Source: a virus | Lineage: Duplodnaviria > Heunggongvirae > Uroviricota > Caudoviricetes | Strand: one strand, 5' to 3' | Virus record (IMG/VR): IMGVR_UViG_2693429623_000001 | Length of the DNA: 5,157 bases | Shown: positions 380 to 5,157 of the stretch, one piece after another | Layout of the letters: each line of letters begins with the position of its first letter | Numbering within the stretch: the first letter of the stretch is position 1 | Position numbers and translations under genes: made by a program | Notes under the pieces: model-generated | The model's input: the letters and a program-made list of their open reading frames with translations, nothing else | What the model was told of the DNA's origin: nothing | Database searches by the model: none

Positions 380-1513
380 TTACGCCAGTTGTACGGACAC
401 GAACTCATCAGGGTCAGCCAGCAGCATCAGCGGTGCTGACTGAATCATGGTGAACTCACGCGCCGGATCGCCGGTGGTCACCCAGTTTTTCGGGTAACGG
501 GCAGAGGCGTTAATGCCTTCGCGCTGTGCGTCCGCATCCTGAATGCAGCCATAGGTGCGCAGACCGCGTGCCTGAGTGTTCCCCAGCACCATCGTGTTGT
601 CCGGCAGGAAGTTCTTTTTGACGCCGTTTTCCACGTACTGTCCGGAATACACGACGATGGCCACATCGCCATACATCCCCTTATAGGACACCGCTTTGCC
701 CAGGTCTTTNNNNNNNNNNNNNNNNNNNNNNNNNNNNNNNNNNNNNNNNNNNNNNNNNNNNNNNNNNNNNNNNNNNNNNNNNNNNNNNNNNNNNNNNNNN
801 NNNNNNNNNNNNNNNNNNNNNNNNNNNNNNNNNNNNNNNNNNNNNNNNCGACGGGTATCCAGCTTCTCCCTGACGGCTTTGAAGGAACGGAACAGCGCCC
901 AGCCTTTCGGATCGAACACGATGATATTCACCACGCCGCTGGCGTTCAGCGCGTAGGCTTCGATATCGTCGGTCGGGTCATACGTGGACTTGTCACGCTT
1001 GCTCCACTCCGTGACGCCGGACTGTGTGATGTTGTTCGCCGCACTGCGGCCCATATCCACCTCAACCGGATCGAAGGCTTCACCGGTCATGGTGTATTTG
1101 CCCTTAAGCACGGCAGAAACTGCCTGCATCTCTTCGACCTGAGCAATGGCCAGCTCTTCGTCACGCATGTTCTGCATGATGATGCGACGGCGGCGGTAAG
1201 CCGGGTCCGCCAGATTCTGCGGATCTTCATCCGGCAGGCGACGCAGGGTCATCTGCGGATTCACCTCATGCTTGGGTTTGACATATCCCGGCGTAAATTC
1301 AGAGGTGGAGCCGCCACGGGAACGGATAACCTCACCGGAAACAATCGGCGAAACGTACAGCGCCATGTTTACCAGTCCCGGAATTTGTGAGAGATAGACT
1401 TTCTCCGTAGTGAAGGGATAGCTCTCACGGAAAAAGAGACGCAGAAACAGCGGATCAAACTTAAATTTCTGCTCATTTGCCGCCAGCAGCTGGGCGGTTG
1501 TGTACATCGACAT
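380..1513 (-). CDS. E: Major capsid protein gpE (HK97 fold); CDS interrupted by a 139-nt N run (710-848) but frame is preserved across it
   Basis: The 386-aa track ORF contains MSMYTTAQLLAANEQKFKFDPLFLRLFF... and ends ...LMLLADPDEFVSVQLA, matching lambda gpE at both ends. The true start is the ATG at 1513 (MSMYTT), not the upstream alternative start at 1540. Stop is TAA at 382-380. Confidence 0.93.
   Translation of the reverse strand: MSMYTTAQLLAANEQKFKFDPLFLRLFFRESYPFTTEKVYLSQIPGLVNMALYVSPIVSGEVIRSRGGSTSEFTPGYVKPKHEVNPQMTLRRLPDEDPQNLADPAYRRRRIIMQNMRDEELAIAQVEEMQAVSAVLKGKYTMTGEAFDPVEVDMGRSAANNITQSGVTEWSKRDKSTYDPTDDIEAYALNASGVVNIIVFDPKGWALFRSFKAVREKLDTRXXXXXXXXXXXXXXXXXXXXXXXXXXXXXXXXXXXXXXXXXXXXXXXKDLGKAVSYKGMYGDVAIVVYSGQYVENGVKKNFLPDNTMVLGNTQARGLRTYGCIQDADAQREGINASARYPKNWVTTGDPAREFTMIQSAPLMLLADPDEFVSVQLA
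710..848. other. Run of 139 ambiguous bases (assembly gap or masked sequence) inside gene E
   Basis: Directly visible as n characters. Flanking sequence on both sides is in the gpE frame. Confidence 0.99.
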
Positions 1514-1526
1514 AAAAAAATCCCGT

Positions 1527-1551
1527 AAAAAAAGCCGCACAGGCGGCCTTT
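1527..1551 (-). terminator. Intrinsic-terminator-like hairpin in the D-E spacer: GCCGC-CUGU-GCGGC stem-loop followed by a 7-U tract on the minus-strand transcript
   Basis: Plus strand 1527-1551 is aaaaaaa-gccgc-acag-gcggc-cttt. On the late transcript this is a GC stem with A/U extension, then UUUUUUU, 17 nt after the D stop and 13 nt before the E ATG. Confidence 0.4.
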
Positions 1552-1910: not shown

Positions 1911-2641
1911 TTACACTGGTGTGTTCAGCAAATCGTTAACGGCATCAGATGCCGGGTTACCTGCAGCCAGCGGTGCCGGTGCCCCCTGCATCAGACGATC
2001 CAGCGCAGTGTCACTGCGCGTCTGTGCACTCTGTGGTGCTGCGGCCAGAATACGGCGGGCCGTTTCCACGGTCATACCGGGGGTTTCGGCCAGCACGCGT
2101 GCCTGTTCTTCGNCATCAGACGATCCAGCGCAGTGTCACTGCGCGCCTGTGCACTCTGTGGTGCTGCGGCCAGAATGCGGCGGGCCGTTTTCACGGTCAT
2201 ACCGGGGGTTTCTGCCAGCACGCGTGCCTGTTCTTCGCGTCCGTGAGCCTCCTCACAGTTGAGGATCCCCATAATGCGGCTGTTTTCTGCCGCAACCGCT
2301 GCGGTGATCTGCGCGTTCACGTCCGGCTGCGCCGCGCTGGCGTTCTCGCCCTCCGTCGCTGGCACCACGTCAGTAACGTCAGCCTGCGAAGCAGTGGCTG
2401 AAACAGTTGTTGATTGAGTCTCTTTGGTCATTCGCCCTCCTGAGAGACGGGATTTACGTGCATCCAGTGCATCACGCATGACGGTGATCGCATCGGTGCT
2501 GTTAACAAGTTCATCAGCCAGTCCGGCATCAATGGCCTCCTGACCGCTGTACACTGCAGCCTCGGTATCCAGCACAGCCTGCACGGACAGGCCGGTATAT
2601 GCCGACACCTTCTGCGCAAACATCTGGCGGGTTGCGTCCAT
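1911..2641 (-). CDS. Nu3: Scaffolding protein Nu3, translated in-frame from an internal ATG of C (C codon 239); frame broken at the 2113 junction as assembled
   Basis: Internal ATG at 2641-2639 (MDATRQMFAQKV...) is 201 codons from the C stop once the 125-nt duplication is removed, matching the lambda C/Nu3 nested arrangement. A second copy of this start lies at 2811 in the upstream repeat copy. Confidence 0.65.
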
Positions 2642-3525
2642 CCGGGACTGCAGTGTCTCCCGGACGTCATCCGGAAGATGGCTGTAGGGGTTGCCATCCA
2701 CCTTATGGCTGCCGCTGTAAATCAGCGTGATTTCCACGCCCTGTTTCTCCAGTGCAGCGCCGTAATTACTGTGANCACCTTCTGTGCAAACATCCGGCGG
2801 GTTGCATCCATCCGGGACTGCAATGTTTCCCGGACATCATCCGGTAGATGGCTGTAGGGGTTGCCATCCACCTTATGGCTGCCGCTGTAAATCAGCGTGA
2901 TTTCCACACCCTGTTTCTCCAGCGCAGCACCGTAATTACTGTGAGCCATCATGACGCCGATGGAGCCTGTCCGGGCGGTCTGCGTGACCAGACGCCGGGA
3001 GGCGGCACTGGCAAGCAACTGACCTGCACTGCAGTTCATGTCGTTGGCAAGCGCCCATACCGGTTTTATGTCACGCACACGGGCGATGATGTCAGCGCAG
3101 TCAAATGCCCCCGCCACCATCCCGCCGGGCGTGTCCATATCGAGCAGAATGCCGTCCACCATCGGGTCGCTGGCAGCCTGTTGCAGACGGGCAATAATGC
3201 CGTTGTAACCGGTCATCCCCGAGTACGGCTGCAGCGCCCGCGTCCGGCTGACCAGCGTGCCGGACACCGGCAGCACGGCGATGCCGTTCATGACCTGATA
3301 ACTGCGGGCCTGTCGTGGTCCGTCATCATCACCGGATAATGCCAGCGTCGCGAGTGCCTCCTGGGCAGTCAGGCTGTCGCCGGACACCGCATCCGTCAGG
3401 CGGCTGATCCCAAGCTGGCCTGCAAGCGCACAAAAGAAAACCCGCGCATAGGCGGGTTCAAGCATCAGCGGCTCATTAAAAGCCATGCTGGCAATATGCG
3501 GGAGATTACGCAGCTCTGCTGTCAC
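1911..3525 (-). CDS. C: Prohead protease/scaffold gpC (S49 family; putative catalytic Ser166 in the NCSAGQ motif at 3030-3028). As assembled, the ORF is broken by two tandem duplications (2606-2944 and 1989-2237); it would be 1320 nt and intact without them
   Basis: GTG start at 3525-3523 preceded by AGGAGG, overlapping the B 3' end by 20 nt as in lambda. N-terminal translation VTAELRNLPHIASMAFNEPLMLEPAYARVFF... matches gpC. The C-terminus ...GAPAPLAAGNPASDAVNDLLNTPV ends with TAA at 1913-1911. Track ORFs 2722..3660, 2072..2737 and 1911..2096 are the three frame-shifted pieces. Confidence 0.85.
1989..2237. repeat. Imperfect direct tandem duplication: copies 1989-2112 and 2114-2237 (124 nt each, 4 mismatches) separated by a single n at 2113
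   Basis: Direct comparison of the two copies. Period is 125 nt, which is not a multiple of 3, so it shifts the C/Nu3 frame. Confidence 0.95.
2606..2944. repeat. Imperfect direct tandem duplication: copies 2606-2774 and 2776-2944 (169 nt each, 10 mismatches) separated by a single n at 2775
   Basis: Direct comparison of the two copies. Period is 170 nt, which shifts the C frame. Both copies encode the same gpC segment (AHSNYGAALEKQGVEITLIYSGSHKVDGNPYSHLPDDVRETLQSRMDATR[Q/R]MFAQKV). Confidence 0.95.
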
Positions 3526-5107
3526 TCTTCTCCTCCTCTGTTGATTGTCGCAGCCCGGATTCAAATGCTGCAGCCGCCCAGGCGGGCGGTTTAAGACCGG
3601 CTGCGCGGCGCTCCATCGTTTCACGGACCTGCTGGGCAAAAATTTCCTGATAGTCGTCACCGCGTTTCGCGCACTCTTTCTCGTAGGTGCTCAGTCCGGC
3701 TTCTATCAGCATCACCGCTTCCTGAACTTCTTTCAGACCATCGATGGCCATACGACCGGAGCCTATCCAGTCGCAGTTCCCCCAGGCACTGCGGGCTTCC
3801 TGAAAGCTGAAGCGCGCTTTTGAAGGTAACGTCACCACGCGGCGAACGATGGCCTCTTCCAGCCAGCACAGAAACATCTGGCTCGCCTGACGGGATGCGA
3901 CGAATTTTCGCCGCCCCATAAAGTACGCCCACGACTCGTTCGCACTGGCCCGTGCCGTGGAGTAGCTCATCTGGGCGTAATTCCGGGAAAGTTGCTCATA
4001 CGAGACACCCAGCCCGGCAGCGATATACCGCAACAGTGACTGCTCAAACACGGAGTAGCCGTTATCCGTGTCCTGAGCCGTCTGCAGGTTCAGTGAGTCC
4101 CCCGGCATCAGGTGCGGCACTTTTGCGCCTCCCAGACGGACCGGTGCTGCGGCGTAATACGCGGCAATTTCACCAATCCAGCCCGTCAGCCTTTCCCGCT
4201 GCTCCTTACTGTTCGCGCCCAGAATAAAATCCATCGCTGACTGCGTATCCAGCTCACTTTCAATGGTGGCGGCATACATCGCCTTCACAATGGCGCTCTG
4301 CAGCTGCGTGTTCTGCAGCGTGTCGAGCATCTTCATCTGCTCCATTACGCTGTAAAACACATTTGCACCGCGGGTCTGCCCGTCCTCCACGGGTTCAAAA
4401 ACGTGAATGAACGAGGCGCGCCCGCCGGGTAACTCACGGGGTATCCATGTCCATTTCTGCGGCATCCAGCCAGGATAGCCGTCCTCGCTGACGTAATATC
4501 CCAGCGCCGCACCGCTGTCATTAATCTGCACACCGGCACGGCAGTTCCGGCTGTCGCCGGTATTGTTCGGGTTGCTGATGCGCTTCGGGCTGACCATCCG
4601 GAACTGTGTCCGGAAAAGCCGCGACGAACTGGTATCCCAGGTGGCCTGAACGAACAGTTCACCGTTAAAGGCGTGCATGGCCACACCTTCCCGAATCATC
4701 ATGGTAAACGTGCGTTTTCGCTCAACGTCAATGCAGCAGCAGTCATCCTCGGCAAACTCTTTCCATGCCGCTTCAACCTCGCGGGAAAAGGCACGGGCTT
4801 CTTCCTCCCCGATGCCCAGATAGCGCCAGCTTGGGCGATGACTGAGCCGGAAAAAAGACCCGACGATATGATCCTGATGCAGCTGGATGGCGTTGGCAGC
4901 ATAGCCGTTATTGCGTACCAGATCGTCTGCGCGGGCATTGCCACGGGTAAAGTTGGGCAGCAGGGCTGCATCCACACTTTCACCCGGTGGGTTCCACGCC
5001 CGCAACTGCCCACCAAATCCGCTGCCACCGCCGTGATAACCGGCATATTCACGCAGCGATGTCATGCCGTCCGGTCCCAGAAGGGTGGGAATGGTGGGCG
5101 TTTTCAT
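3506..5107 (-). CDS. B: Portal protein gpB (533 aa)
   Basis: A 1602-nt ORF, exactly the lambda B length, translating MKTPTIPTLLGPDGMTSLREYAGYHGGGSGFGG..., which I recognise as lambda gpB. ATG at 5107-5105 overlaps the W stop as ATGA. Confidence 0.95.
   Translation of the reverse strand: MKTPTIPTLLGPDGMTSLREYAGYHGGGSGFGGQLRAWNPPGESVDAALLPNFTRGNARADDLVRNNGYAANAIQLHQDHIVGSFFRLSHRPSWRYLGIGEEEARAFSREVEAAWKEFAEDDCCCIDVERKRTFTMMIREGVAMHAFNGELFVQATWDTSSSRLFRTQFRMVSPKRISNPNNTGDSRNCRAGVQINDSGAALGYYVSEDGYPGWMPQKWTWIPRELPGGRASFIHVFEPVEDGQTRGANVFYSVMEQMKMLDTLQNTQLQSAIVKAMYAATIESELDTQSAMDFILGANSKEQRERLTGWIGEIAAYYAAAPVRLGGAKVPHLMPGDSLNLQTAQDTDNGYSVFEQSLLRYIAAGLGVSYEQLSRNYAQMSYSTARASANESWAYFMGRRKFVASRQASQMFLCWLEEAIVRRVVTLPSKARFSFQEARSAWGNCDWIGSGRMAIDGLKEVQEAVMLIEAGLSTYEKECAKRGDDYQEIFAQQVRETMERRAAGLKPPAWAAAAFESGLRQSTEEEKSDSRAA
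3530..3538 (-). promoter_or_regulatory. Shine-Dalgarno (GAGGAGGAG) for C, embedded in the 3' end of B
   Basis: Reverse complement of 3523-3540 is CAGAGGAGGAGAAGAGTG; the AGGAGG core sits 6 nt upstream of the GTG start. Confidence 0.6.
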
Positions 5108-5157
5108 ACATAAAATCCTGCAGGTCCCCTGCGTCGCTGTGTCATGCCGGTCTGCAC
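5104..5157 (-). CDS. W: Head-tail joining protein gpW, last 17 codons only (gene starts beyond the window end)
   Basis: Manual minus-strand translation of 5157-5107 gives VQTGMTQRRRGPAGFYV followed by TGA at 5106-5104, matching the gpW C-terminus. The stop overlaps the B start in ATGA. Confidence 0.85.
   Translation of the reverse strand: MQTGMTQRRRGPAGFYV

Follow-up and report, generated by a model that had tools for sequence, protein, structure and literature searches.

A frameshifting tandem duplication in gene C of a lambda-type scaffold is very probably a false duplication at scaffold joins

The gene C of a lambda-type draft sequence contains a long direct repeat that breaks its reading frame, and this raises the question of whether a prophage gene was really duplicated and disrupted or whether the repeat was introduced when the sequence was put together. 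The window analyzed here, by which we mean the whole 5,157-nt stretch of IMG/VR record IMGVR_UViG_2693429623_000001, is the complete draft scaffold CXCR01000210.1 (5157 bp; assembly GCA_001259815.1) in reverse complement. It holds the lambda head-gene block on its minus strand, namely a partial Fi, E, D, C with Nu3 nested inside it, B, and the start of W. Its identity is 98-99% to phage lambda, phage 434 and HK629/HK630, as it is to prophages found in about 3300 out of 5426 complete E. coli genomes. The head genes of MW057783.1, deposited as ‘Campylobacter phage CJLB-4’ (48,361 bp, host Campylobacter jejuni), also match the window with lambda's identity and layout, and this entry may be a mislabelled lambda or a contaminant.

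The genes of the window differ in their condition. The portal gene B (3506-5107, minus strand) is intact at 533 aa, and the head decoration gene D lies at 1569-1901 on the same strand. The major capsid gene E (380-1513, minus strand) is broken by a gap of 139 Ns, and the lambda-type gene C (1911-3525, minus strand), which encodes an S49 prohead protease/scaffold with Nu3 nested in frame, is frameshifted twice. The gene calls on the record split C into three fragments of 267, 221 and 54 aa, and E into fragments of 222 and 109 aa. Matched as an exact protein, the N-terminal C fragment led to one contig, which is this record. If the duplications in C were real, the head protease and the scaffold would be inactivated.

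The repeat that first drew attention to this gene consists of two direct copies of 169 nt, at 2606-2774 and 2776-2944, which are spaced 170 nt start to start and are 94% identical in a repeat search; Tandem Repeats Finder reports it with a period of 170, two copies and a score of 603. Its length and identity are far beyond chance. A lone N at 2775 is all that separates the copies: reading across the junction, copy 1 ends in ...CTGTGA, a single base follows, and copy 2 starts with CACCTTCTGTGC... The copies are unlike at 10 sites, nine of them transitions. When these sites are read in the gpC frame of lambda, on the minus strand, nine prove to be silent and one alters codon 244 from CAG to CGG (Q244R). 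The first-pass annotation had described two 169-nt copies around one N with 10 differences, nine of them synonymous and one giving Q or R, and the repeat search, direct comparison of the copies and translation in the gpC frame all bear this out. It had also held that a real duplication would frameshift C, which is correct in that the period of 170 is no multiple of 3 and the deposited sequence meets stop codons past the junction at 2775. The start codon of Nu3 (minus strand, CAT on the plus strand), located by mapping the lambda annotation by offsets, is itself duplicated, at 2639-2641 in copy 1 and again at 2809-2811 in copy 2.

Two further features of the window go without mention in the first-pass annotation. 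At 1989-2237, 660 nt away from the first repeat, there is a twin structure made up of a 124-nt copy at 1989-2112 and another at 2114-2237, with four differences between them and a lone N at 2113. Two of its differences are synonymous and the other two are A404T and K389E in gpC/Nu3, and this duplication also shifts the frame of both C and Nu3. The second feature is the run of 139 Ns at 710-848, inside gene E, where 31 nt of lambda are absent and the gap is oversized by 108 nt. The excess corresponds to 36 codons and by chance keeps the frame, and a mechanical ORF call of 386 aa (380-1540, minus strand) passes through the Ns. Together, the three N features split the window into four pieces, which we call c0 (1-709), c1 (849-2112), c2 (2114-2774) and c3 (2776-5157).

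All four pieces align without gaps to the lambda locus (L001): c0 to 710-1418 with 1 mismatch (99.86%), c1 to 1450-2713 with 21 mismatches, c2 to 2590-3250 with 4 mismatches (99.39%), and c3 to 3082-5463 with 35 mismatches. They stand in lambda order and orientation, and neighbors overlap in their lambda coordinates exactly at the single Ns, c1 and c2 by 124 nt and c2 and c3 by 169 nt. The twin's copies are the right end of c1 and the left end of c2, both equivalent to lambda locus 2590-2713, and the copies of the longer repeat are the right end of c2 and the left end of c3, both equivalent to 3082-3250. The N at 2113 marks the c1/c2 scaffold join and the N at 2775 the c2/c3 join, and each is an extra base without a counterpart in lambda. 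The record has only these two single Ns, each exactly on a repeat junction, an arrangement for which the naive chance is about 8e-8.

The position of the Ns bears on the possibility that C belongs to a decaying prophage and underwent genuine imperfect tandem duplications of 170 nt and 125 nt, for example through unequal recombination with a co-resident lambdoid prophage, with the Ns being low-quality calls. Both copies are indeed present in the deposited sequence, and prophage genes do decay, the portal gene annotated as a pseudogene in E. coli FACU 2024 being one example. However, a genuine duplication should present determined sequence that is uninterrupted across the junction, and at both duplications the junction base itself is an N. 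Both Ns would have to fall by accident exactly on the junctions, each as an extra base relative to lambda, and two independent out-of-frame events 660 nt apart would be needed, yielding copies that match different natural alleles.

Removing the repeats from the sequence restores an ordinary gene. As deposited, C is 1615 nt long versus the 1320 nt expected, and deleting either copy of each overlap gives a C of 1320 nt and 439 aa that has no internal stop and is 3-4 aa off lambda gpC. The ~439-aa frame homologous to lambda C is present after collapse, whereas the gene as deposited lies in three fragments. The collapsed gene is like lambda C/Nu3 in its length, in its GTG start overlapping B and in its internal Nu3 ATG, at 98-99% identity; we find no biological differences between the two, and the disruption is confined to the deposited record. 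The true C/Nu3 gene is almost certainly intact and single-copy.

The differences between the copies are those of natural alleles. Among 34 natural alleles that were sequenced independently, each of the 14 differing sites (10 in the longer repeat and 4 in the twin) is polymorphic, and both of its states occur. Exact matches to natural alleles exist for three of the four copies: 2776-2944 is identical to E. coli FACU 2024 (L027), 1989-2112 to loci L008, L018, L021, L023 and L027, and 2114-2237 to lambda, while copy 2606-2774 differs from E. coli FAM21845 (L026) at a single base. Such matches are difficult to reconcile with a homotype false duplication, in which the ends of a single lambdoid copy went unmerged and the 10 and 4 differences are sequencing or consensus errors. 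Contig edges are often a source of misassemblies (GapFiller paper, PMC3446322), and a positional bias of variant calls along contigs has been reported (PMC5368935), so errors concentrated at contig ends would not be out of place. Yet such errors would have had to strike natural polymorphisms, in exactly these two states, at 14 of 14 sites, to recreate real alleles in three of four copies, and to be synonymous in nine of 10 cases and transitions in nine of 10. The haplotype difference also runs through whole pieces and is not limited to their ends. Judging from these allele comparisons, sequencing error at contig ends does not explain the natural-allele matches, and we consider an origin from a single allele very unlikely.

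The excess of synonymous changes argues equally against a real duplication. Within the 169-nt segment, about 22% of possible single-base changes are synonymous, or 34% of transitions, and the probability of at least nine synonymous differences in 10 is 1e-5 under random change and 5e-4 if only transitions are allowed. Because the 170-nt copy breaks the frame, this bias can only have accumulated in two genes that were separate and intact, and not after a real duplication. The copies of a genuine duplication would diverge without coding constraint, whereas the observed ratio of synonymous to nonsynonymous differences is 9:1, a bias that would be impossible after a frame-breaking event.

Other sequences of the locus lack the duplication. 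When a 1801-nt query over both junctions was used, all phage and complete E. coli matches listed covered 1506 nt (1801 minus 125 minus 170) in three pieces, and 33 of 33 related loci retrieved had one copy only. In 24 of 24 IMG/VR contigs sharing the c3 allele the layout was colinear and single-copy, and the coordinates of the pieces again overlapped by 124 nt and 169 nt. The exact portal protein occurs in many assemblies, and in all seven places listed an intact 439-aa S49 peptidase gene adjoins it; the DNA of seven contigs with the identical portal protein is 1.3-1.6% different. We also searched with a junction pattern that allowed any base at the N and accepted both alleles at 2785, and it had 0 matches in a collection of 185,579 species represented by one genome each, 0 in 2.9 million viral contigs and 0 in 241 million metagenome records. 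Applied to the window, the pattern does find its target, so its N works as intended. The c3 haplotype had no match in the one-genome-per-species collection either, and among complete E. coli genomes no whole piece had a nucleotide-identical match, the best being 99.3% for c3 and 99.5% for c2. With the junction in none of the three collections, and one copy in the listed matches from about 3300 E. coli genomes, genuine duplication in a decaying C appears extremely improbable. We find it scarcely credible, too, that the duplications are real products of template switching, or of unequal exchange between a resident prophage and a second lambdoid one, with the Ns as coincidental miscalls at the recombination joints.

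The duplication is very probably an artefact of scaffolding or gap closing in a short-read draft, by which the overlapping ends of two alleles were placed one after the other with one N between them. The first-pass annotation had suggested as much, proposing that the copies are two diverged natural alleles rather than random error, and that overlapping contig ends had been joined by an N without being merged. The first part is upheld by the polymorphism of all 14 sites and the three exact natural alleles, and the second by the colinear overlaps at the Ns, the frame restored on collapse and the absence of the junction elsewhere. The hallmarks of a false duplication coincide here: an N lies exactly between the copies on the same scaffold (at 2775, and at 2113 for the twin), the adjoining pieces are colinear on lambda with overlapping coordinates, the copies are heterotype with allele-specific variants, and independent sequences of the locus (the matches listed, the three collections and the seven portal neighbors) are free of the duplication. 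A short multi-gap scaffold such as CXCR01000210.1 is also typical of collapsed or fragmented prophage repeats.

The difference between the haplotypes extends beyond the overlaps. Compared to lambda, c0 and c2 together have 5 mismatches in 1370 nt and c1 and c3 together have 56 in 3646 nt (Fisher p=4e-4). The relationship is reversed for IMG/VR contig L023, with 42 mismatches in 1370 nt for c0 and c2 and 32 in 3646 nt for c1 and c3 (p=1e-7). These comparisons would fit a scaffold whose pieces alternate in origin, c0 and c2 coming from a lambda-like haplotype and c1 and c3 from a different lambdoid one. E. coli FACU 2024 has c1-type and c3-type alleles on one prophage, with a middle segment unlike c2. 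Lambdoid phages are naturally mosaic, and alternating similarity is therefore corroboration but alone no proof of two sources.

Where the two alleles came from can be weighed as well. E. coli genomes commonly carry two or more lambdoid C genes (4490 places in 3164 genomes, at most 5 per genome), and the most likely source is two lambdoid prophages in one E. coli-like genome, the second of which we infer. The same joining of ends could also have acted on alleles from a mixed or contaminated culture, whether of two strains or with a free lambda-like phage, and the present data are compatible with both a mixed sample and paralogous prophages. The closeness of c0 (99.86%) and c2 (99.39%) to laboratory lambda would be in keeping with such a mixture. 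However, c0 and c2 carry 1 and 4 mismatches versus lambda, and the three at the right end of c2 match other natural alleles; that these pieces are non-identical to lambda argues against simple contamination with the laboratory phage. Since E. coli genomes often contain several lambdoid prophages, the one-genome version is simpler, and a mixed culture is the less likely source, one that we regard as rather unlikely.

The overlap itself shows mosaicism on a finer scale. Within the 169 nt, the c2 copy resembles lambda at the first 7 variable sites and L011 at the last 3, and the c3 copy is its reciprocal, resembling L011 at those 7 and lambda at the other 3. Natural recombination of lambdoid C alleles near lambda locus 3152-3213 would be enough to explain these reciprocal mosaics. 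Chimeric contigs, with a haplotype switch inside the overlap of c2 and c3, were considered and are needless, since both combinations are natural (L026, L027). We also considered a de Bruijn bubble, in which contigs would end k-1 past the last SNP, and rejected it because the distances are irregular (9, 15, 24 and 32 nt); owing to this irregularity, the k-mer size is not inferable. As a separate observation on E. coli FACU 2024 (NZ_CP147009.1; L027, 3731-5317), the annotation marks its portal gene as a pseudogene interrupted by a stop codon, and the gene shows one gap relative to c3; either genuine decay or an indel error of long-read sequencing could account for this.

A plausible course of events for the false duplication can be outlined. 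At least two lambda-type head-gene regions, closely related and locally about 2-6% different, would have been present in the sample, and the assembler, failing to resolve two near-identical prophage regions, would have broken them into small contigs. Read pairs would then have given the correct contig order. Neighboring ends would have held the same 169 nt of C (the same 124 nt in the case of the twin) in different alleles, and these ends, or their extensions into the gap, may have passed each other unmerged, whereupon a minimal gap of one N was presumably written. SSPACE and ABySS mark an overlap that they leave unresolved by a single "n". Extension from both gap edges, of the SSPACE/GapFiller type, would fit this sequence of steps, with the choice of software being conjecture on our part.

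Behavior of this general class is known from the assembly literature. Negative gaps are how ALLPATHS-LG and Meraculous record overlapping neighbor contigs. GapFiller grows both gap edges inward, base by base, and closure needs an overlap of at least 10 nt as well as an inserted length within 50 nt of the estimate (PMC3446322). The 139-N gap in gene E overestimates 31 nt by 108 nt, and this is a size error of the kind that would lead to rejection of such a closure. The Sanger high-throughput bacterial pipeline runs Velvet, then SSPACE, then GapFiller, and its authors warn of false joins by greedy tools (PMC5320598). For SSPACE/GapFiller we found general descriptions of negative gaps and closure, and no citable statement that exactly one N stands for an unresolved overlap. 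The closest precedent comes from vertebrate assemblies, in which false ‘heterotype’ duplications that flank gaps and derive from diverged haplotypes have been documented (Ko et al. 2022, Genome Biol 23:205, PMC9516828). In both settings, diverged versions of one locus lie adjacent on one scaffold with a gap between them, and the result is false gene disruption or gain. The vertebrate cases involve diploid haplotypes and span kilobases to megabases. In the present scaffold, by contrast, paralogous lambdoid prophages of a haploid bacterium are the probable origin of the two versions, the shared stretch measures 124-169 nt, and a single N forms the gap.

The biological significance of this duplication is negligible, and its lesson is one of data quality. 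From the fragmented calls for C (267, 221 and 54 aa) and E (222 and 109 aa), one might wrongly conclude that the prophage is defective or that its genes have undergone pseudogenisation. One N with near-identical direct repeats on either side is a simple, machine-detectable signature, and draft bacterial assemblies could be screened for it so that such false duplications are flagged and collapsed, above all in multi-copy prophage regions.
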